Positions 2,800 through 35,325 are shown, counted from the stretch's first letter. The stretch is 37,945 nt of DNA from a virus (IMGVR_UViG_2526164597_000009), one strand, 5' to 3'. Numbers and translations are program-made. Notes: generated by a model from the letters alone, not told the origin.

Positions 2800-3741
2800 T
2801 TAAACCCTTTTTCTAATTATTCCTTTAACTTTATTATTAAATTCCAAATCTTCTTTATCGCATTCAAAGCTATATTTTGTGTTTTCAACGCGGATGCGAT
2901 TGTTTGGAAGTTTAAATATGTCTCTAAAAGTAAATTCTCCGTTAATAGATACTAACCATAGACCATCGCTAAGATACTCCTCTTTGCTAATGATATATGA
3001 ATCATTTGCGGAATTAACTATATAGGGATGTTTTAAATTTTGAGGTAAAATTTCGCTCGAAACGATTAATTCTCTTTGATCAGTAAGTTTGCCGTCACGT
3101 AGATCATAGCAGTCTAATGTAAGCAACCCACTTAGCTTTGTTTGATTGGAATGCCCCTTACCAAAAGATAACCACTCGAGAGACACTCCTGTTTCTAAAC
3201 AGCATTGGATGATCCAGTCTGCCGGAAAAATGTCTCGCATGTATCGTGTAGCTAATGTGCTTTTTGAGATACCAAGGTGATCGGCTAAGGCTTGGCGCGT
3301 TTTGTAACCGTAAGCCTTAACAATTCGCTCTATTGCTGCTTTACCCCCTCGAGTGAAATCCATGTGGTTTTCATTATCGAACTTTATCGTGGGGGTGTGA
3401 ACTTCATTGCAAAATTCATCTGCAGACTGTTTTTCAGCATGCCGTTCTGGCGAAGGAGCTGGCACTCCTTCTTCAGCATCTAAACCAAATGCTAACCATT
3501 CGATTGATGCGCCAGTTTCCATTGAACATATAACAACCCAATCAGCAGGGAAGGTATCGCGTGCATATCTGTTAGCCATTGTACTTTGTGAAATACCAAG
3601 GTGGTTACAGAATGCTTGGCGTGATTTGAAACCATAGGCCATGAGTATTCTCTCAATGACTTTTTGCCCTCCTCGATTCTGCATGACCATGGCTTTCAGA
3701 TGATCTTCAACATGGCGAAATGTGATTTTATTAGTTGACAT
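2800..3741 (-). CDS. cI: Phage 186 CI-type immunity repressor with tandemly duplicated N-terminal HTH domain
   Basis: 313 aa; two about 65 percent identical modules (GGQKVIERILMAYGFKSRQAF...EWLAFG and GGKAAIERIVKAYGYKTRQAL...EWLSFG) then a C-terminal domain (GLWLVSINGEFTFRDIFKLPNNRIRVENTKYSFECD) resembling the 186 CI C-terminus as I recall it. Confidence 0.75.
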   Translation of the reverse strand: MSTNKITFRHVEDHLKAMVMQNRGGQKVIERILMAYGFKSRQAFCNHLGISQSTMANRYARDTFPADWVVICSMETGASIEWLAFGLDAEEGVPAPSPERHAEKQSADEFCNEVHTPTIKFDNENHMDFTRGGKAAIERIVKAYGYKTRQALADHLGISKSTLATRYMRDIFPADWIIQCCLETGVSLEWLSFGKGHSNQTKLSGLLTLDCYDLRDGKLTDQRELIVSSEILPQNLKHPYIVNSANDSYIISKEEYLSDGLWLVSINGEFTFRDIFKLPNNRIRVENTKYSFECDKEDLEFNNKVKGIIRKRV

Positions 3742-3829: not shown

Positions 3830-4051
3830 ATGACCCCTAACATTTCAATAACTCTGAATACGCCGCACGTCACAATTGAGCGTTATAGCGAACTTACTGG
3901 TCTTTCTATCGACACAATCAACGATATGCTGGCTGATGGTCGCATCCCTCGTCATCGCCTTCGGAAAGACAAGAAAAGAGAAAAGGTAATGATCAACCTT
4001 GCTGCTCTTACCGTTGATGCACTTACTGATTGCAATGTTGTATTCAACTAG
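3830..4051 (+). CDS. apl: Apl/Cox-like excisionase and transcriptional regulator (small HTH protein)
   Basis: 73-aa ORF with AGGAGA RBS 9 nt upstream of ATG at 3830; position between repressor and cII as in phage 186. Confidence 0.6.
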
Positions 4052-4083
4052 TTCCATTTTGGGATACATCAGGGGTGTCGACT

Positions 4084-4593
4084 ATGTTTGATTACCAAGT
4101 TTCCAAACATCCACATTTTGATGAAGCCTGTCGTGCATTCGCGCTGCGCCACAACCTGGTGCAACTGGCAGAACGTGCTGGCATGAATGTGCAGATTCTG
4201 CGGAACAAGCTGAACCCGGCTCAACCTCATTTATTAACCGCACCAGAAATCTGGCTGCTTACCGATCTGACTGAAGATTCAACGCTGGTAGATGGTTTTC
4301 TGGCTCAGATTCACTGCCTGCCATGCGTACCGATTAATGAGGTGGCAAAAGAGAAACTGCCACATTACGTCATGAGTGCAACCGCAGAGATCGGGCGTGT
4401 TGCTGCAGGTGCGGTATCTGGCGATGTAAAAACCAGTGCAGGTCGTCGTGATGCTATCAGCAGCATTAACTCTGTAACACGACTGATGGCGCTGGCGGCT
4501 GTTTCATTGCAGGCCCGTTTACAGGCTAATCCTGCGATGGCGAGTGCAGTTGATACCGTGACTGGCCTCGGTGCTTCATTCGGTTTGCTGTGA
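4084..4593 (+). CDS. cII: CII-like lysogeny establishment activator (186 CII family)
   Basis: 169 aa from [24 protein letters not shown]...; closely matches 186 CII as recalled ([20 protein letters not shown]...). Confidence 0.8.
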
Positions 4594-5409: not shown

Positions 5410-5636
5410 TGGCTGATGCAATGGATCTCGTACAGCAGCGCGTTGAAGAAGAACGCCAGCGTCATATCCGTGCTGCCCGTGCCAAAACGCCGGGAGTGTC
5501 CCGCGTGCTTTGCGTTGAGTGTGAAGCGCCAATTCCGCCAGCACGCCGCCGTGCCATTCCGGGTGTGCAACTTTGCATTACCTGTCAGGAAATCGCAGAG
5601 CTGAAAGGCAAACATTACAACGGAGGTGCTGTATGA
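5409..5636 (+). CDS. TraR/DksA-family C4 zinc-finger protein
   Basis: CVEC...(17 aa)...CITC zinc-finger spacing; start overlaps upstream stop (TGATG). Confidence 0.7.
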   Translation: MADAMDLVQQRVEEERQRHIRAARAKTPGVSRVLCVECEAPIPPARRRAIPGVQLCITCQEIAELKGKHYNGGAV

Positions 5637-6487
5637 GCACCATCCTGAAATGGGCGGGAAATAAAACTGCCATAATGTCCGAACTGAAAAAACATCTTCC
5701 TGCTGGCCCGCGACTGGTTGAACCTTTCGCGGGTTCCTGTGCTGTGATGATGGAGACGGATTATCCCAGCTATCTGGTTGCGGATATTAATCCTGATTTA
5801 ATCAACCTCTATAAAAAGGTTGCCGCTGATTGTGAATCGTTTATATCTCGCGCCAGAGTTTTATTTGAGATCGCAAACAGGGAGGTGGCTTATTACAACA
5901 TAAGGCAGGAGTTTAATTACTCAACTGAAATTACTGATTTCATGAGAGCGGTATATTTCCTGTATCTCAATCGTCACGGTTACCGTGGTTTATGTCGCTA
6001 TAACAAGAGCGGGCATTTCAACATTCCCTACGGTAATTATAAAAATCCGTATTTCCCTGAAAAAGAAATTCGCGCATTTGCAGAAAAGGCCCAGCGAGCA
6101 ACGTTTATCTGCGCCAGCTTTGATGAAACGCTGGCGATGTTGAAGGCGGGGGATGTGGTGTATTGCGATCCGCCGTATGACGGTACGTTTTCCGGCTATC
6201 ACACTGATGGTTTCACTGAAGATGACCAGTATCACCTGGCATCCGTTCTTGAACATCGAGCATCTGAAGGACATCCGGTCATTGTTTCTAACAGTGACAC
6301 GTCTTTGACCCGGTCTCTTTATCGTAATTTCACTCACCACTACATCAGGGCGAAACGCAGCATCGGCGTTGCAGCGGGGGAGGGAAAATTTGCAACAGAG
6401 ATGATTGCCACTAAATCTGCTAATTGGTTTAGTGCCGATTTTAGTAGGGGACGTGACTCTACTGTTATTTTCGGGGTGCAAGTGTGA
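5633..6487 (+). CDS. dam: DNA adenine methyltransferase (Dam-like, N6-adenine)
   Basis: ILKWAGNK N-terminus, [11 protein letters not shown]-binding motif, CDPPYDG catalytic motif; ATGA overlap with upstream gene. Confidence 0.88.
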
Positions 6488-7314
6488 AAGAAATGCACCA
6501 CGGAATTCATCATTTCCATGGGACGCCTGTCTGGGGAAGTGCTGGCGACGTTCATCGTATTGCGGTGAGCGGAGCTGGTGCTTTCGTCTCCTATGTACGA
6601 CCAGATCAGATTGCGGCGTCCATTCAGCACGCCCAGGTCGTTGGCATTGATAACGGCGCATTTTCTGCATGGGTGCGTGGGCTAAAAATTAACTGGAATG
6701 ATTTTTATAAATGGCTCCTGAACTATTACCACCATCCTAAGGTCGCTTTTTTTGTCATTCCTGATGTTGTGGACGGAGGTGAACGTGACAATGATGCCCT
6801 GATAAACGAAGTTCCGAAAATGTTCTACGGGAAGGCAACTCCCGTCTGGCATCTGCACGAGTCAATCGATCGGCTTATCGAGCTATGTCGTGAATGGCCT
6901 CGTGTCTGCTTTGGATCGTCTGGTGAATATGCGGCTATTAGAACTGCGCACTGGCATCGTCGTATGCAGGACGCTTTTGAAGCAATTTATTGCCGACACA
7001 ATTTCAAAACAGCTGTTCATGGTTTGCGCATGCTTGACGGTCGTGTGTTGGGAAATTACCCACTGGCGACTGCCGACAGTACAAATCTTGCCTGCAATGT
7101 CCCCAAATTTAATAGCAAATATCCTGAGCTTACGCGGGCTATTCAGGAGGCTGAGTATTCGCGCAATCTGACGGAAAAGGAGCTGAAAGCTGTCATTCTG
7201 AAAAACCGTTGCGCAATTTTAAAAGGTGCAATTGAAGCTGTTCGCCCACCTTCAGTTTCTGACTGGCTGTCGAATGGTTTGCAGCCTTCACAGCTCGAAC
7301 TGGAGATTGCGTAA
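6484..7314 (+). CDS. Hypothetical enzyme translationally coupled to Dam and A; possible DNA-modification function
   Basis: 276-aa ORF with GTG start overlapping dam stop; motifs [35 protein letters not shown] faintly recall the TGT/DpdA TIM-barrel pattern (unverified). Confidence 0.55.
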
Positions 7315-22817: not shown

Positions 22818-23173
22818 CGCTTTATAGCGGGATGAACAATACCAGCGGCAAAGTCATTACTGATATTGACCATCTGCGCCAGTCGGTGCGGGACATTCTG
22901 CTGACGCCGCAGGGTAGCCGCATTGCCCGTCGGGAATATGGTTCCCTGCTGTCGGCACTGATAGATCAGCCACAAAATCCGGCGTTACGCCTGCAGGTCA
23001 TGTCGGCAGTGTATGTGGCGCTGAGTCGCTGGGAGCCACGGCTGACGCTGGATTCCATCACCATCAACAGCCATTTTGACGGTTCAATGGTGGTGGAGCT
23101 GAGCGGGCGGCGTAATAACGGTGTGCCTGTTTCCCTTTCCGTATCAACAGGAGCAGAGAATGGCAGTGATTGA
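22814..23173 (+). CDS. W: Baseplate protein (P2 gpW-like)
   Basis: 119 aa; stop/start overlap with V. Confidence 0.85.
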   Translation: MTLYSGMNNTSGKVITDIDHLRQSVRDILLTPQGSRIARREYGSLLSALIDQPQNPALRLQVMSAVYVALSRWEPRLTLDSITINSHFDGSMVVELSGRRNNGVPVSLSVSTGAENGSD

Positions 23174-24068
23174 CCTTTCGCAGTTGCCTGCGCCGCAGAT
23201 TGTGGATGTGCCGGACTTTGAGACGCTGCTTGCCGAACGCAAGGCCGAATTTGTGGCGCTTCATCCGAAAGATGAGCAGGAAGCAGTGATCCGCACGCTG
23301 GAACTGGAATCTGAACCCGTTACCAAATTGTTGCAGGAGAACGCTTATCGTGAGTTGCTTCTGCGCCAGCGCATTAACGAAGCCGCGCAGGCGGTGATGG
23401 TGGCTTACGCGATGGGCGGCGATCTTGACCAGCTCGCTGCTAACTACAACGTGAAACGCCTGACGGTGACACCTGCTGATGATGACGCTGTACCGCCCGT
23501 TGCGGCTGTGATGGAAAGTGATGAAGCGTTACGCCTGCGTGTGCCTGCAGCCTTTGAAGGGCTTTCTGTTGCGGGGCCAACTGCCGCTTATGAGTTTCAT
23601 GCACGAAGCGCCGACGGTCGGGTGGCGGATGCCAGTGCAACCAGTCCGGCACCTGCAGAGGTGGTACTGACTGTCCTTAGCCGCGAAGGCGACGGAACAG
23701 CAGAAAAAGACTTGCTGGATGTGGTGGAGAACGCCCTGAACAGTGAGAACGTCCGCCCGGTGGCTGACCGTCTGACGGTTCGCAGCGCAGAAATCATCCC
23801 GTACCGCGTGGAAGCCACCATTTTTCTTTATCCGGGACCGGAAGCAGAGCCGGTAATGGCAGCGGCAAAAGCCAGCCTGCAGAAGTACATCGCCAGTCAG
23901 ACGCGGCTTGGTCGGGATATTCGCCGTAGTGCCATTTTTGCCGCGCTGCATGTTGAGGGGGTTCAACGTGTGGAGCTGACTTCACCGCTGGCTGATGTGG
24001 TCCTGAACAAAACACAGGCCGCCTCATGTACGCAGTGGAGCGTAACCAACGGAGGAACGGATGAATAG
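23160..24068 (+). CDS. J: Baseplate protein (P2 gpJ-like)
   Basis: 302 aa from MAVIDLSQLPAPQIV with AGGAG RBS; same length as P2 J. Confidence 0.85.
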   Translation: MAVIDLSQLPAPQIVDVPDFETLLAERKAEFVALHPKDEQEAVIRTLELESEPVTKLLQENAYRELLLRQRINEAAQAVMVAYAMGGDLDQLAANYNVKRLTVTPADDDAVPPVAAVMESDEALRLRVPAAFEGLSVAGPTAAYEFHARSADGRVADASATSPAPAEVVLTVLSREGDGTAEKDLLDVVENALNSENVRPVADRLTVRSAEIIPYRVEATIFLYPGPEAEPVMAAAKASLQKYIASQTRLGRDIRRSAIFAALHVEGVQRVELTSPLADVVLNKTQAASCTQWSVTNGGTDE

Positions 24069-24666
24069 TCTGCTGCCACCAGGTTCAACGCTACTGGAGC
24101 GCCGACTGGCGCAGACCTGTAGCGGGATTTCTGATCTGCAGGTGCCGCTGCGTGACTTGTGGAATCCGGCAACCTGTCCGGTCAGTTTCCTGCCTTATCT
24201 CGCTTGGGCGTTCTCTGTGGATCGCTGGGACGAGGGCTGGACTGAAAGCGTCAAACGTCAGGTGGTGAAGGATGCTTTTTATATTCATCAGAATAAAGGA
24301 ACCACCAGTGCCGTGCGGCGGGTGGTGGAACCGTTCGGATTCCTGATCCGCATTATTGAGTGGTGGCAGACCGGCGAAACACCGGGCACGTTTCGCCTGG
24401 ATATCGGCGTGCAGGATCAGGGCATCACTGAAGATACCTATCTGGAACTTGAGCGACTGATAAGCGATGCCAAACCATGTAGCCGTCACATGATCGGCAT
24501 GTCCATCAATCTGCAGACCAGCGGCCCGCATTGGGTGGGAGCCGCCAGCTATCTTGGCGAAGAAATCACGATCTATCCGTATATCAACGAAACAATTATT
24601 TCCGGCGGCACCGCGCATGAAGGCGGGGCGGTCCATGTTATTGACACAATGAGAGTGAATCCATGA
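24061..24666 (+). CDS. I: Baseplate/tail protein (P2 gpI-like)
   Basis: 201 aa; overlaps J and H. Confidence 0.8.
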   Translation: MNSLLPPGSTLLERRLAQTCSGISDLQVPLRDLWNPATCPVSFLPYLAWAFSVDRWDEGWTESVKRQVVKDAFYIHQNKGTTSAVRRVVEPFGFLIRIIEWWQTGETPGTFRLDIGVQDQGITEDTYLELERLISDAKPCSRHMIGMSINLQTSGPHWVGAASYLGEEITIYPYINETIISGGTAHEGGAVHVIDTMRVNP

Positions 24667-26405
24667 GCACAAAATTTTATACCCTGCTGACGGATATTGG
24701 CGCGGCGAAACTTGCCAGCGCCGCCGCGCTCGGTGTGCCTTTAAAAATTACCCATATGGCGGTCGGCGATGGCGGCGGAACATTACCAACGCCGGACGCA
24801 AAGCAGACAGCACTGGTAAATGAGAAACGCCGGGCTGCGCTGAATATGCTCTATATCGACCCGCAGAACAGCAGCCAGATTATTGCTGAACAGGTGATCC
24901 CTGAAAACGAGGGCGGTTGGTGGATACGTGAAGTGGGCTTGTTTGATGAGTCCGGGGCATTGATTGCCGTGGGTAACTGCCCGGAAAGCTATAAGCCGCA
25001 ACTGGCTGAAGGCAGTGGGCGTACCCAGACCGTGCGCATGGTGCTGATTACCAGCAGTACGGGCAATATCATCCTGAAAATCGACCCTGCTGTAGTGCTG
25101 GCAACCCGCAAGTATGTGGATGACAAGGCACTGGAGCTGAAGGTGTACGTGGATGACCTGATAGCAAAACATCTTGCCGCACTGGACCCGCATTCACAGT
25201 ATGCACCCAAAGAAAGTCCGACATTTACCGGAACCCCCAAAGCGCCAACGCCAGCGGCGGGGAATAATACCACTCAGCTTGCGACCACCGCATTTGTTCA
25301 GGCGGCACTGACGGCCCTGATTAATGGTGCGCCAGCCACGCTGGACACGCTGAAAGAAATAGCCGCAGCCATTAACAATGACCCGAAATTCAGTACCACC
25401 ATTAACAATGCGCTGGCACTGAAAGCGCCGCTGTCGAGTCCGGCACTCACCGGAACGCCAACAGCCCCCACGGCGGCGCAGTCGGTCAACAATACACAGA
25501 TTGCCACTACGGCTTTTGTGAAATCGGCGATTGCGGCAATGGTGGGTTCTGCACCTGCGGCACTGGATACACTGAACGAACTGGCGGCGGCACTGGGGAA
25601 TGATCCGAACTTTGCCACGACAATGCTTAATGCGCTGGCAGGTAAACAACCGCTGGACAATACGCTGACTAATTTGAGTGGAAAGGATGTAGCTGGTCTT
25701 CTCACATACCTTGGTTTGGGAGAAGCCAGATTCTCTGGTCGTTTGTTAAACACGAATATTTTTAAAAGTTCTGGAAAATATATCCCAACACCAGGGACAA
25801 AAAAGATAAGGGTCATTGCCTCTGGTGGTGGCGGCGGCGGCGGTGGGGTTCCTGAAACAACAGAAAATCAGCAGGCAACAGCCGGAGCTGGATTGAGCGG
25901 CGCATTTATTGAAGCATTTTTCGAGGTTGATAATGATTTCGAAGTCAACGTTATTATCGGTGCTGCAGGTAAAGGGGGGGGAGCCGGAAGAAATTCAGGT
26001 AGTGAAGGTGGCACAACTTATTTCGGTTCCATGATAACTGCACCTGGTGGTACAGGCGGTGGCGCGGGGGGAGCATCTGCAAACACATCATATATTCAGG
26101 GTATTTCATGGGGTGCCAGTCCGACATCGTCCGGCACTGTACTAAGAGCATTTCGCTGTAGTGCAAAAACACCAGGAGCAATGGTTATCTCTGTTAAAGC
26201 TGTAGCAGGTGGTACCGGGGGGGATACACCATTAGGTTCAGGCGGTATAGGTGGTGCAAGTTCTTCATCATTCAGAGGACGTGGTGGTGGTAAAGCTGAG
26301 GGCTTTGGTGCTGGCGGAGGCGGAGCCTGCGCACCTGCTGGAAGTGAGGCTCAATCGGGAGGTGACGGTGCCCCGGGAATAGTTATTGTTGAGGAGTATG
26401 CCTGA
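24663..26405 (+). CDS. H: Tail fibre protein (P2 gpH-like) with constant N-terminal part and an invertible variable C-terminal part
   Basis: 580 aa; N-terminus MSTKFYTLLTDIGAAKLASAAALGVPLKITHMAVGDGGG typical of P2 H; tandem fibre repeats; glycine-rich C-terminal domain. Confidence 0.85.
   Translation: MSTKFYTLLTDIGAAKLASAAALGVPLKITHMAVGDGGGTLPTPDAKQTALVNEKRRAALNMLYIDPQNSSQIIAEQVIPENEGGWWIREVGLFDESGALIAVGNCPESYKPQLAEGSGRTQTVRMVLITSSTGNIILKIDPAVVLATRKYVDDKALELKVYVDDLIAKHLAALDPHSQYAPKESPTFTGTPKAPTPAAGNNTTQLATTAFVQAALTALINGAPATLDTLKEIAAAINNDPKFSTTINNALALKAPLSSPALTGTPTAPTAAQSVNNTQIATTAFVKSAIAAMVGSAPAALDTLNELAAALGNDPNFATTMLNALAGKQPLDNTLTNLSGKDVAGLLTYLGLGEARFSGRLLNTNIFKSSGKYIPTPGTKKIRVIASGGGGGGGGVPETTENQQATAGAGLSGAFIEAFFEVDNDFEVNVIIGAAGKGGGAGRNSGSEGGTTYFGSMITAPGGTGGGAGGASANTSYIQGISWGASPTSSGTVLRAFRCSAKTPGAMVISVKAVAGGTGGDTPLGSGGIGGASSSSFRGRGGGKAEGFGAGGGGACAPAGSEAQSGGDGAPGIVIVEEYA
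25215..25656 (+). repeat. Tandem duplication (two copies of about 215 bp) encoding tail-fibre repeat modules within H
   Basis: Protein repeats PTFTGTPKAPT...TTAFVQAAL...LDTLKEIAAAINNDP and PALTGTPTAPT...TTAFVKSAI...LDTLNELAAALGNDP. Confidence 0.5.
25699..25724. promoter_or_regulatory. DNA-invertase crossover site (left; Gin/Hin/Cin/Pin-type 26-bp site) inside H
   Basis: TTCTCACATACCTTGGTTTGGGAGAA; its right half is the reverse complement of the right site's left half. Confidence 0.6.
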
Positions 26406-26671
26406 TGAGTAATTTTGCTCTGATTGAACATGGCGTGGTGAAAAATATTATTATCTGGGATGGAGAGGGTGATTTATTCTCTAATTGCGAAATTATAAAT
26501 GTTGATCATATAGATGCAGGCGTCGGTTGGTTCTATTCTGACGGAGAGTTTATAGCACCACCGGAACCGGAAATGACTGAATATGATGTTGGTAATATCG
26601 ACGCGGTGATGGAAGCAGATACCAGCACCGCGCCGGGGGTTATCTGGCCAGTTCCACCTGAGATGGTTTAA
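26405..26671 (+). CDS. Putative tail fibre assembly/chaperone protein (gpG position), within invertible segment
   Basis: 88-aa ORF overlapping H stop (ATGA), C-terminus GVIWPVPPEMV; short relative to P2 G. Confidence 0.45.
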   Translation: MSNFALIEHGVVKNIIIWDGEGDLFSNCEIINVDHIDAGVGWFYSDGEFIAPPEPEMTEYDVGNIDAVMEADTSTAPGVIWPVPPEMV

Positions 26672-26900
26672 TCTCAATCAGAATGGGTTCGCCCTTCTCG
26701 TTAACAGATATTTCCATTCCTTCAGGGATTTCAGATGCAGTAAAAAACCAGTTATCTTCTGGTAATTCCACAGCCCCGGTCACGTCATGAAGACCGGGGA
26801 TTACTTCAGTCAAAGTAACAGGATTAAACAGGCGCACAATAAACTCTCCAGGAAAAAGCACTTGTTGATGGTCTTCCGTCGTACATCTGGCAGCGGACAT
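26640..26900 (-). CDS. Putative alternative tail fibre assembly/chaperone protein (G-prime), silent in current orientation
   Basis: Minus-strand ORF downstream of the alternative fibre cassette; start ambiguous (ATG at 26900 or GTG at 26837 with GGAG RBS). Confidence 0.35.
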   Translation of the reverse strand: MSAARCTTEDHQQVLFPGEFIVRLFNPVTLTEVIPGLHDVTGAVELPEDNWFFTASEIPEGMEISVNEKGEPILIEIKPSQVELAR

Positions 26901-27165
26901 AAAAACCTGTATTACTGACCTGGTCATCCACGATCATTGAAACGTGAACGTTATTAGGTGTGGCCTCGTAATCTGTTCTTATTCTTTCCGCTATGCTGAT
27001 AAAACGTGAAAGCTTAGGTAGTGCAATTGGATAAACGACTTTAGCCAGCCCATTATCATTGGAACCACCAGTTCCAAATACTTCTATTGCACCATCTGAC
27101 CAGCGTATCCATGCACCATTGACATTAGCTCCTCGCTGAATGACATATCTGGCTTCTCCCAAACC
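26824..27165 (-). CDS. Promoterless alternative tail-fibre C-terminal cassette (Hv-prime) within the invertible segment
   Basis: Minus-strand frame passing through the right crossover site and encoding the same GLGEAR junction peptide as H at the left site. Confidence 0.45.
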   Translation of the reverse strand, partial: GLGEARYVIQRGANVNGAWIRWSDGAIEVFGTGGSNDNGLAKVVYPIALPKLSRFISIAERIRTDYEATPNNVHVSMIVDDQVSNTGFYVRCQMYDGRPSTSAFSWRVYCAPV

Positions 27166-27179
27166 AACGTTTATGAAAA
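27154..27179. promoter_or_regulatory. DNA-invertase crossover site (right), inverted relative to 25699..25724
   Basis: TTCTCCCAAACCAACGTTTATGAAAA, close to recalled cix/gix/hix sites; about 55 bp upstream of the invertase gene. Confidence 0.6.
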
Positions 27180-27234
27180 TGCAGAGATAACGGCTAACTG
27201 GCATCATCCCCGGTTTTTATTCAGGGGATTGATC

Positions 27235-27801
27235 ATGCTTATTGGCTATGTACGCGTGTCAACAAATGACCAGAACACTGATTTGCAACGTAATGCACTG
27301 AACTGCGCGGGATGTGAGCGGATTTTTGAGGACAAAATCAGTGGCACTAAGTCCAACAGACCGGGGCTGAAAAAACTGCTCAGGACACTATCGGCAGGAG
27401 ACACGCTGGTTGTCTGGAAGCTGGACAGGTTGGGGCGCAGTATGCGGCATCTTGTTACGTTGATAGAAGAGTTGCGCCAGCGAGGTGTGAATTTCCGAAG
27501 CCTGACTGACAGTATTGATACCAGTACCCCAATGGGCCGTTTCTTTTTTCATGTCATGGGTGCCCTGGCTGAAATGGAACGCGAACTGATAGTTGAACGT
27601 ACCAGGGCGGGGCTTGCTGCAGCTCGCGCCAAAGGCAGAGTAGGTGGACGCCGTCCTAAGTTGACTACCGAACAGTGGGCACAGATTGGACGCTTACTCG
27701 AGGCCGGAGAATCAAGACAGCGTATTGCACTGATTTTTGATGTGGGTGTTTCCACAATTTATAGAAAATTTCCGGCAAATAAGAGTAATGAATCCCCCTG
27801 A
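27235..27801 (+). CDS. Serine recombinase DNA invertase (Pin/Gin/Cin/Hin family)
   Basis: MLIGYVRVSTNDQNTDLQ...VVWKLDRLGRSM...SPMGRFFFHVMGALAEMERELI closely matches E. coli e14 Pin as recalled; catalytic Ser in the YVRVST motif. Confidence 0.9.
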   Translation: MLIGYVRVSTNDQNTDLQRNALNCAGCERIFEDKISGTKSNRPGLKKLLRTLSAGDTLVVWKLDRLGRSMRHLVTLIEELRQRGVNFRSLTDSIDTSTPMGRFFFHVMGALAEMERELIVERTRAGLAAARAKGRVGGRRPKLTTEQWAQIGRLLEAGESRQRIALIFDVGVSTIYRKFPANKSNESP

Positions 27802-27849
27802 ATCAGCATTATTTTGATTATCCCTGAAAGCAGACAAATACCGTCATTT

Positions 27850-27867
27850 TGTGTGAATAACGGTACA
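27850..27867. promoter_or_regulatory. Candidate Ogr-binding site (TGT-N12-ACA) of the FI/FII late promoter
   Basis: TGTgtgaataacggtACA centred about 85 bp upstream of FI ATG; resembles the P/O site. Confidence 0.4.
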
Positions 27868-27943
27868 ACTGCGCTTAGCTGTTTGTCAGGCACAATCACT
27901 TCAACATAGGGCGAAGCCTAATCCAATCAGGAGGTTCGCCACT

Positions 27944-29116
27944 ATGGCTCAGGATTACCACCACGGGGTGCGCGTTGTTGAAGTCAACGAAGGCACCCGA
28001 TCCATTACCACGGTGAGCACTGCCATCGTGGGTATGGTATGCACGGGCGATGATGCCGATGCAAAAATGTTTCCTCTTAATAAACCCGTGCTGATCACTG
28101 ATGTGCTGACTGCCAGCGGTAAAGCGGGTGAGTCAGGCACGCTGGCTCGTTCGCTGGATGCCATCGCTGACCAGGCAAAACCCGTGACCGTTGTTGTGCG
28201 TGTGCCGCAGGGTGAAACGGAAGAAGAAACCACGACCAATATCATCGGAGCAGTGACCGCTGAAGGTAAAAAAACAGGCATGAAAGCCCTGTTATCTGCC
28301 CAGTCACAGCTCGGCGTTAAACCGCGCATTCTCGGCGTGCCAGGTCACGACACGAAGGCGGTAGCTACTGAGTTGCTGAGCGTGGCGCAAAGCCTGCGTG
28401 GATTTGCTTACCTGTCAGCGTATGGTTGCAAGACGGTGCAGGAAGCAATCACTTACCGTGAAAACTTCAGTCAGCGTGAAGGAATGCTGATCTGGCCCGA
28501 CTTTACTGGCTGGGACACGGTGCTGAATGCCGAAGCAACGGCTTATGCCACCGCCCGTGCGCTTGGTCTGCGCGCCAAAATTGACGAGCAGACCGGATGG
28601 CACAAAAGCCTGTCCAACGTGGGCGTTAACGGTGTCACCGGAATTTCTGCTGATGTGTTCTGGGATCTGCAGGACCCGGCAACCGATGCGGGACTGCTGA
28701 ACCAGAACGACGTCACCACCCTTATCCGCAAAGACGGTTTTCGCTTCTGGGGTTCCCGCTGCCTGAGTGATGACCCACTCTTTGCCTTCGAAAACTACAC
28801 CCGCACGGCGCAGGTGCTGACGGACACGATGGCAGAAGCGCACATGTGGGCGGTGGATAAACCGCTGAATCCGTCGCTGGCCCGCGACATTATCGAGGGT
28901 ATCCGCGCCAAAATGCGCAGCCTGGTCAGTCAGGGCTATCTCATTGGTGGTGATTGCTGGCTGGATGAGTCGGTGAACGACAAAGACACGCTGAAAGCCG
29001 GAAAACTCACCATCGACTACGACTACACGCCAGTGCCGCCACTTGAAAACCTGATGCTGCGTCAGCGCATCACCGATCAGTACCTGGTGAATTTCTCCAG
29101 CCAGGTCAGCGCGTAA
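27944..29116 (+). CDS. FI: Contractile tail sheath protein (P2 gpFI-like)
   Basis: 390 aa; size matches P2 FI (396 aa). Confidence 0.9.
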
Positions 29117-35112: not shown

Positions 35113-35170
35113 TCGATAAAAAACAGTGCTTCTAACATCATGATTTTAAAAGGCATAAATTTCAGGCAAC

Positions 35171-35214
35171 AAAAAACCCATCAACCTTGAACCGAAATGG
35201 CGGGGTTGATGGGC
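35171..35214 (-). terminator. Candidate Rho-independent terminator downstream of ybjL
   Basis: 10-bp inverted repeat CCCATCAACC/GGTTGATGGG followed on the minus strand by TTTTTT; loop is long (17 nt). Confidence 0.4.
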
Positions 35215-35325
35215 TCCACAAAATGGGGACATCAAAGAAAAGCAGTGGCACTAATTAAGACTGATGCCCTGCGGAAAAGTTCTGCGGTTGTGCAAAAAAA
35301 TTTCATTTTCAGGGCAACTTCAGTT

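Follow-up and report, generated by a model that had tools for sequence, protein, structure and literature searches.

A Pin-type invertible segment joins tail-fibre gene H to either of two tips in a P2/186-like prophage of Escherichia coli

Background

The DNA analysed here, a viral stretch of 37,945 nucleotides (IMGVR_UViG_2526164597_000009; hereafter the window), carries the tail-fibre gene H and, downstream of it on the same strand, a gene for a serine DNA invertase of the Pin type, and the DNA between them encodes fibre tips on both strands. The locus raises the question of whether the intervening DNA is a working switch, which products it exchanges, and what the exchange would do for the phage. 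An initial annotation, made from the sequence, had proposed a segment of about 1.45 kb bounded by inverted 26-bp sites at 25699..25724 (inside H) and 27154..27179. The segment is reported here to invert in nature and in a laboratory lineage, and its flipping determines which of two tips located on opposite strands is joined in frame to H residues 1-350. It is considered very probable that the locus works as an active inversion system of the Pin type, one that exchanges the receptor-binding end of a P2/186-type fibre H.

Orientation of the segment in complete genomes

A set of 5,426 complete E. coli genomes was searched with the native 2.7-kb stretch of the window and with a version of it flipped in silico. 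The native form was found full-length in 16 genomes and the flipped form, full-length and as one aligned piece, in 12; the two orientations are thus nearly equal in frequency. The 14.7-kb loci of UC4224 and UC4315, the latter described in its record as a mutant of the former, differ only in that the interval equal to window positions 25711-27167 is exactly reverse-complemented, and the same interval is likewise the only difference between LR1 and LR4, which are sister isolates from one study. Based on these two pairs, in which the flanks are identical, the invertible segment was placed at 25711..27167, from central dinucleotide to central dinucleotide, and measures 1,457 bp, in agreement with the size first proposed. 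The parent and mutant provide a clean natural example in which the breakpoints are mapped to the central dinucleotide.

The record of strain 214-4 (NZ_CP025840.1), designated 'complete', contains the locus twice in opposite orientations, 35 kb apart across the record origin. Two tandem prophages were ruled out, since the duplicated stretch includes the chromosomal genes ybjO, potFGHI, rimK, nfsA, and grxA along with most of the prophage, and frameshifts are found in one copy. Because chromosomal genes are duplicated, the record ends (1-~35,000 and 5,103,420-5,138,709; loci L009 and L010) were interpreted as an untrimmed terminal overlap of ~35 kb, which implies that one DNA preparation held both isomers. 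The opposite orientations of the segment may also be the reason that the assembler left the ends unmerged.

The artefact in the 214-4 record is a point in favor of the view that the switch is a dead relic, or that the two orientations in the databases arose by misassembly of the inverted repeat. At only 33 bp, however, the repeat is far below the length of a sequencing read, and each form occurs in independent complete genomes. The UC4224/UC4315 inversion is exact and bounded by the central dinucleotides, and the invertase (described below) is intact and appears to be under purifying selection. The comparisons of parent with mutant, of LR1 with LR4, and within 214-4 exclude a relict switch and an assembly artefact as general explanations, and this view is regarded as extremely improbable. 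Both orientations were present, rather than a single one with an inactive invertase, and the inversion proposed in the initial annotation stands.

Crossover sites

The longest inverted repeat in the interval 23000-29000 has arms of 33 nt at 25699-25731 and 27147-27179, which are 88% complementary and separated by 1,415 nt. The whole 37.9-kb window was scanned with the generic DNA-invertase site consensus TTCTCNNAAACCNNGGTTTNNGAGAA, allowing up to three mismatches, which picked out two places only, 25699-25724 with 1 mismatch and 27154-27179 with 2; a set of 100 dinucleotide-preserving shuffles yielded no match. The repeat and the consensus scan agree with the pair of sites first annotated. Extra sites that would permit multiple inversions, as in p15B Min and one prophage of enteropathogenic E. 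coli (EPEC), were looked for with the consensus and with the inner half-site alone as the query, and no further credible copy was found across the window. The switch is thus a two-site system.

The left site (25699..25724, central TT at 25711-25712) lies inside H and reads TTCTCACATACC-TT-GGTTTGGGAGAA, and the right site (27154..27179, central AA at 27166-27167) reads TTTTCATAAACG-TT-GGTTTGGGAGAA as its reverse complement. Read in one register, the two sites agree in the central dinucleotide and throughout the inner half but differ in the outer halves, and they are in inverted orientation with TT at both centers in the inverted register. Alignment with known site families assigned both to the pix type: the right site, pixR, exactly matches its right-hand counterpart in the K-12 element e14 (TTCTCCCAAACCAACGTTTATGAAAA), and the left site is pixL-like, having the center and inner half of e14 pixL. 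A 2025 study (PMC12529663) gives the repeat core TTGGTTTGGGAGAAG as the place at which the e14 segment is inverted by PinQ, PinR, and PinE. Since this core is common to both elements, host-encoded Pin paralogues could act in trans on the prophage segment, and the prophage invertase could act on e14.

DNA invertase

The invertase gene (27235..27801, + strand) encodes 188 aa from an ATG at 27235 (MLIGYVRVSTNDQ...), in place of which a mechanical list of open reading frames (ORFs) gives an upstream TTG. The protein contains the resolvase catalytic domain PF00239 (E=3e-53) and the helix-turn-helix domain PF02796 (HTH_7, E=1.5e-15, residues 140-183), and it matches crystal structures of Gin (3UJ3, E=4e-92). 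It is 85% identical to PinE of K-12 e14, as the initial annotation had anticipated from its likeness to e14 Pin, 77% identical to Cin of P1, and 73% identical to Gin of Mu. The nucleophile Ser9 and residues R7, D64, R65, and R68 are invariant in an alignment with Cin, Gin, and PinE, and the recombinase looks intact. In comparisons with relatives, the ratio of non-synonymous to synonymous polymorphism (pN/pS) was 0.03-0.15, which indicates purifying selection.

Position 114 is occupied by Met, as in the aligned wild-type sequences of Cin, Gin, and PinE, whereas the crystallised Gin proteins have Val. Gin M114V is a Fis-independent mutant, and the Met found here suggests that this invertase is probably Fis-dependent. 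The P1 record places the Cin enhancer at +19 to +90 of cin, and the stretch that aligns with this recombinational (Fis) enhancer (27253..27324, + strand) is 79% identical to it, the identity of the next 76 nt being 63%; its identity to pinE is 87.5%. The stretch fits a putative enhancer, and the same DNA encodes a highly conserved N-terminal peptide. Promoter and terminator scans around the switch yielded counts no higher than those in shuffled sequence and were uninformative.

Fibre gene H and its alternative tips

In its present form, H (24663-26405, + strand) encodes 580 aa. The constant part, residues 1-350 (24663..25710, + strand), lies outside the segment, is the same in both isomers, and contains the tail-collar fibre N-terminal domain PF12571 (E=1e-63). 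Across the left site H reads ...LLTYLGLGEARFSG..., and the minus-strand ORF across the right site reads ...FINVGLGEARYVIQ..., such that the peptide GLGEAR is encoded across the site in both fibre frames. The initial annotation had predicted from this peptide that inversion would fuse the alternative C-terminus in frame, and exchange in silico at the central dinucleotides indeed produced an uninterrupted, in-frame H of 463 aa, the form that RefSeq annotates as 'phage tail protein' in flipped genomes.

Tip 1, which is now fused to H (25713..26405, + strand), is a TNF-like and glycine-rich module that matches PF21722 (Gly_rich_2) above the cut-off (E=1.7e-8). Searches of both tips against solved structures by sequence gave nothing significant. 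An AlphaFold model of tip 1 based on 34 homologues had a mean predicted local distance difference test score (pLDDT) of 90.5 and matched the fibre of cyanophage Pam3 (7YPX; E=2e-7, template modelling score 0.60), with a further match to 7YFW. The model also matched the tail tip of mycobacteriophage Bxb1 (9D93) and, more weakly, the TNF-like/glycine-rich (TG) domains of ALK/LTK. Tip 1 is thus predicted to be a receptor-binding module with the Pam3 fibre fold; in Pam3, the TNF-like/glycine-rich module is the proposed receptor-binding end (PMC9608196).

Tip 2, which is now unfused (26824..27165, - strand), comprises 113 aa from GLGEAR to the stop codon and matches the C-terminus of phrog_2557, a PHROG family of 'virion structural protein' (E=5e-15). 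A gp53-like C-terminal domain (PF21882) is not claimed for it, the match being below threshold (E=0.009, 17 bits versus a cut-off of 24.9), and a relationship to StfE/StfP of e14 was also rejected. The pN/pS ratio of tip 1 was 0.06-0.14 where measurable, and both tips have few or no non-synonymous changes among the loci compared.

A short leader, MMPVSRYLCIFINV (27166..27207, - strand), lies outside the segment and supplies the start codon for whichever tip is unfused, at present in an ORF at 26824..27207. Only this leader matches e14 StfE, with 67% identity to its start. Both orphan (unfused) forms, of 126 aa and 244 aa, are annotated in RefSeq. Assemblies and annotations of prophages of this kind differ only by the state of the switch, and their fibre genes appear, according to orientation, as 'hypothetical', 'partial', or 'glycine-rich domain protein'. 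At four related loci (L007, L021, L023, and L002), RefSeq designates H or the tips as 'incomplete', 'frameshifted', or 'missing C-terminus'; tip 1 has indels or a stop codon in three of them (L007, L021, and L023) and is intact in L002. This suggests that such designations are a mixture of real damage and of switch state or unfamiliar tips.

The orphan ORF invites an alternative in which the lysogen, and not the phage, is the main beneficiary of the segment: the unfused tip would be translated from the leader near the invertase and would block other phages at the cell surface, as is reported for StfE2, an unfused chimeric e14 tip that is produced by inversion and blocks adsorption of T2 (PMC12529663). 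Its arrangement and leader are conserved with e14 StfE, the site core is that of the e14 repeats inverted by PinQ, PinR, and PinE, and the segment is also found in e14-like cryptic elements. Tip 2 is not similar to StfE, however, the promoter scan detected no promoter-like site for the leftward orphan ORF near 27207, and the prophage appears complete with a full set of P2-type structural genes, for which a function in the virion is the simpler assumption. An unfused tip that is expressed in lysogens and blocks other phages is judged quite unlikely, and less likely than a role of the two small ORFs described below as minimal fibre helpers. The StfE2 report does suggest that the orphan ORF with its start at 27207 may have a second role within the lysogen, and functions in the lysogen and in the virion are not mutually exclusive.

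Small ORFs downstream of the tips

Each tip is followed by a small ORF, and both, which are unusually short for helper genes, had initially been annotated as chaperone-like. The first, of 88 aa (26405..26671, + strand), overlaps the H stop codon in TGATG and is translationally coupled to it. It had no Pfam match (including PF02413, Caudo_TAP), and a word-indexed search retrieved only five near-identical homologue clusters. An exhaustive search with its first ~56 residues retrieved 207 representative relatives; most of the 150 that were listed fall into two length classes of roughly 55-70 aa and 125-145 aa, and relatives consisting of the N-domain only (51-70 aa) are common. The N-domain is 39-51% identical to proteins of 129-136 aa that pass PF02413, and all seven of the ~130-aa relatives tested with Pfam pass Caudo_TAP. 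By alignment, the 88-aa protein consists of the N-domain joined through a PPEPE linker to the last 24 residues (...DTSTAPGVIWPVPPEMV), with ~46 residues of the helical domain missing relative to the 130-aa proteins. The C-terminal helical domain that ends in a DTSxAPxxxWPxxP tail is represented by these 24 residues only, which match the tail of the tail-fibre assembly protein (Tfa) with an hhalign probability of 94.9%. The family profile also matches Tfa U of Mu (5YVQ_B, E=3.5e-11). As judged from these matches, the 88-aa ORF is an internally deleted derivative of Tfa that has kept the fibre-binding N-domain and is not a full member of the family.

The second small ORF (26640..26837, - strand) overlaps two neighbours, tip 2 (14 nt) and the 88-aa ORF (32 nt). 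Its likely start is a GTG that follows the ribosome-binding site GGAGAG, giving 65 aa as in RefSeq, whereas the mechanical ORF list gave 95 aa. No sequence or fold similarity to Tfa was found. The chaperone-like label is borne out for the 88-aa ORF by its derivation from Tfa, with the reservation that ~46 residues have been deleted, and for the 65-aa ORF a chaperone role is suggested by position only. The 65-aa ORF matches only positions 1-66 of the 145-position profile phrog_5400, and the possibility that it is a truncated gene was considered and rejected, since most of its 141 homologues, among those listed, are 57-66 aa in length. These homologues occur in Escherichia, Enterobacter, Salmonella, Citrobacter, Kosakonia, Cronobacter, Hafnia, Yersinia, and others (Enterobacterales), and 54 of them, when aligned, show conservation of residues 1-54 followed by a variable tail. 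All four full-length contexts examined in P2-like tail modules had the ORF directly after a fibre-tip ORF, within a segment beside a resolvase-family gene, and one related element was seen in both orientations (L012 versus L013); one Yersinia locus had no identifiable upstream tip. The pair formed by the tip and the 65-aa ORF is kept across genera within invertase-flanked segments. From its conservation, the 65-aa ORF is assigned to a family of small proteins, and its position and co-inheritance with the tip suggest that it may assist the fibre. For both small ORFs, estimates of the ratio of non-synonymous to synonymous substitution rates (dN/dS) were uninformative, the sequences being 99-100% identical in all loci fetched.

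The reduced state of these ORFs would be accommodated by an on/off switch, in which only one cassette gives a functional fibre, the helpers are degenerate, and inversion toggles between infectious and non-adsorbing particles. Such a switch is consistent with the lack of ~46 residues of the conserved Tfa C-domain in the 88-aa ORF, the lack of any Tfa relation or fold match for the 65-aa ORF, and the frameshifted tips at L007, L021, and L023. It is at odds with the length of the listed 65-aa homologues (mostly 57-66 aa) in many genera and the conservation of their residues 1-54, with the abundance of N-domain-only relatives of the 88-aa ORF, with the few or no non-synonymous changes in both tips, and with the about equal numbers of the two orientations in genomes (16 versus 12), and it is considered unlikely. 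That both small ORFs are functional minimal fibre helpers, one a Tfa cut to its N-domain plus a 24-residue tail and the other a widespread family with a core of ~55 residues and without detectable similarity to Tfa, is put forward tentatively, as a possibility about which we are more doubtful than confident. If both suffice for assembly, the helical domain of Tfa, which is regarded as conserved and universal, would be dispensable for some tips, and the 65-aa family would be a new class of tail-fibre chaperone or cap.

Proposed mechanism

In the mechanism that we favor, the invertase (27235-27801) would pair the two inverted 26-bp pix sites and cut at their identical central TT dinucleotides, probably helped by Fis bound to an enhancer within the first ~90 bp of its own gene, and rotation and religation would flip 25711-27167, leaving the promoter of H, its residues 1-350, and the invertase gene in place outside the segment. 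In the present orientation, H ends in the TNF-like/glycine-rich tip and is followed by the 88-aa deleted Tfa; in the other, a 463-aa H ends in the 113-aa tip and is followed by the 65-aa ORF. A population of lysogens would thereby release two types of fibre, a form of bet-hedging on host range. Fis dependence, different receptor specificities of the two tips, and a helper role of the small ORFs are parts of this scheme that we infer.

Several points weigh against parts of this scheme. The DNA of the putative enhancer also encodes the strongly conserved N-terminus of the protein, which confounds the conservation of this stretch, and a role of Fis is predicted from sequence. The promoter scan detected no convincing sigma-70 promoter for the invertase in 27180-27234. 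In the Pam3 work, the N-domain of the helper binds the tip and the helical domain drives trimerisation (PMC9608196); the latter is tied to fibre trimerisation in both Mu and Pam3 (PMC9608196) and is mostly missing from the 88-aa Tfa, and tip 1 might for this reason assemble poorly. Sequence and fold tests revealed no similarity of the 65-aa ORF to any chaperone. Finally, a change of host range is a predicted effect of the exchange of tips.

Exchange of cassettes

The e14-like elements L002 and L022 carry the segment at 98.8-100% identity, whereas their invertases are only 75-81% identical to that of the window and their fibre N-terminus is unrelated (YmfQ/StfP context). Near-identity of the segment beside such divergent invertases indicates that it has recently been exchanged horizontally as a unit and moves as a module among e14-like elements and P2-like prophages. 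The guanine-plus-cytosine content of the segment is 43-51%, compared with ~55% in the flanks (4-12 points lower). At locus L008, a classical tip with a 201-aa Tfa is paired with the tip 2/65-aa cassette of the window. An overlap of ~29-32 nt between the convergent helper genes is seen in the window, Cartapus (an Escherichia phage compared below), e14, L008, L011, and L014, and the Tfa tail is shared at that junction. Each half-segment thus looks like an exchangeable cassette, with pix/GLGEAR on one side and the Tfa tail on the other. A cassette of this kind is in line with older work on fibre mosaicism. Compact cassettes of a tip and a mini-helper could serve for retargeting P2-based delivery particles and for defining a minimal fibre chaperone.

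Prophage context and other features

The gene order in the near-identical prophage of 214-4 is V-W-J-I-H-[segment]-invertase-FI-FII-E-T, which is of the P2 type. Klebsiella phage 4LV2017 aligns with 80% of the first 24 kb of the window at 96.6% identity, Cartapus, a relative of the window prophage, is classified in the Peduoviridae, and a CII-like activator is encoded at 4030-4593. These features support assignment to a P2/186-type prophage (Peduoviridae) of E. coli, with the 186 label, already used in the initial annotation, resting on the gene order and the CII-like regulator. Direct repeats of at least 20 nt that could represent attachment sites were not found in the window.

Divergent from the CII-like gene is an ORF of 312 aa (2800-3741, - strand), unusually long for an immunity repressor of the P2/186 type, with three separate stretches that match PHROGs of transcriptional repressors (phrog_4, E=3e-73). 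The early region also encodes a DNA methyltransferase (5573-6487, + strand) that is followed by an ORF (6484-7314, + strand) matching phrog_887, labelled queuine tRNA-ribosyltransferase (E=2e-96); this Tgt/DpdA-like gene and the methylase might form a DNA-modification (7-deazaguanine-type) anti-restriction module. A full-length gene for the small RNA RybB (Rfam RF00110, 105 bits) was detected at 35168-35246 (- strand), close to the ogr/late-control end of the prophage and ~80 nt from an aspartate:alanine antiporter ORF on the same strand (start 35326). The cargo between the tail-completion genes and the baseplate gene V varies among related loci: LR1 and LR4 (L019/L020, 986-2761, - strand) carry a GmrSD-type restriction endonuclease and UC4224 (L017/L018, 2288-2947, - strand) a hypothetical protein. 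The site looks like a moron or defence hotspot of this phage group.

Comparison with known inversion systems

The G segment of Mu and the C segment of P1 are the classical inversion systems. The window shares with them the recombinase subfamily (73% identity to Gin and 77% to Cin), 26-bp inverted sites, and the division of the fibre into constant and variable parts, and the invertase gene has near its 5' end a stretch that aligns with the enhancer annotated in P1. The likeness to Mu G and P1 C that was initially recognised in this locus is thus upheld in its architecture, with a constant part of H and two in-frame C-termini on opposite strands. Mu G is ~3 kb and P1 C ~4.2 kb in length, with full-size Tfa proteins (U and U', ~175 aa), as compared with 1,457 bp and small ORFs here, and the systems differ further in the central dinucleotide, the half-site sequences, and the phage families.

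The closest system is the P segment of e14 with PinE, which has an identical right site, a left site identical in its center and inner half, and an invertase of 85% identity. The layout is also the same, with a fibre N-terminus, a segment containing two convergent pairs of tip and helper, and an invertase, and the leader of the orphan ORF is conserved. Inversion of the e14 P segment by PinE is established, having been cited and reconfirmed by sequencing and polymerase chain reaction (PCR) by Goldberg et al. (PMC4272514). In contrast to the prophage described here, which appears to be a complete one of the P2/186 type with a long H fibre, e14 is a cryptic element. Its segment is longer (~1.8 kb; 1,797 bp, PMC12529663), and its cassettes are StfP/TfaP and StfE/TfaE instead of a glycine-rich tip with a deleted Tfa and a tip with the 65-aa ORF.

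Other P2-like (Peduoviridae) switches, including those of Cartapus, the EPEC E2348/69 prophages, and Fels-2 (Fin), are found at the same position, between H and the sheath gene. Cartapus is 95-97% identical to the window in its flanks and invertase, whereas its segment encodes two classical tips with Tfa proteins of ~130-140 aa. Inversion in the EPEC P2-like prophages was demonstrated by sequencing and PCR (PMC4272514); one of these prophages has three repeats and four isomers (PMC4272514), compared with the two sites and different cassettes of the window. The Fels-2 invertase Fin acts on the H segment of Salmonella (as cited in PMC4272514 and PMC12529663).

Phage Pam3 has no inversion system and resembles the window in its fibre and helper. 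The model of tip 1 matches gp24 (7YPX, with a TNF-like plus glycine-rich domain), the sequence identity being only ~26%. In Pam3 gp25, an N-terminal domain of 55 residues binds the fibre and precedes a helical domain (PMC9608196), and the 88-aa ORF is likened to gp25 by its sequence layout, with an N-domain of similar size and the PPEPE linker; the helper of the window has lost most of the helical domain. The mechanism described here is that of the textbook, inversion in P2-like prophages of E. coli had already been demonstrated, and nothing in the switch is mechanistically new. What extends beyond the known systems is the content of the cassettes, namely a Pam3-type glycine-rich tip paired with a deleted Tfa and a second tip paired with a member of an uncharacterised 65-aa family.

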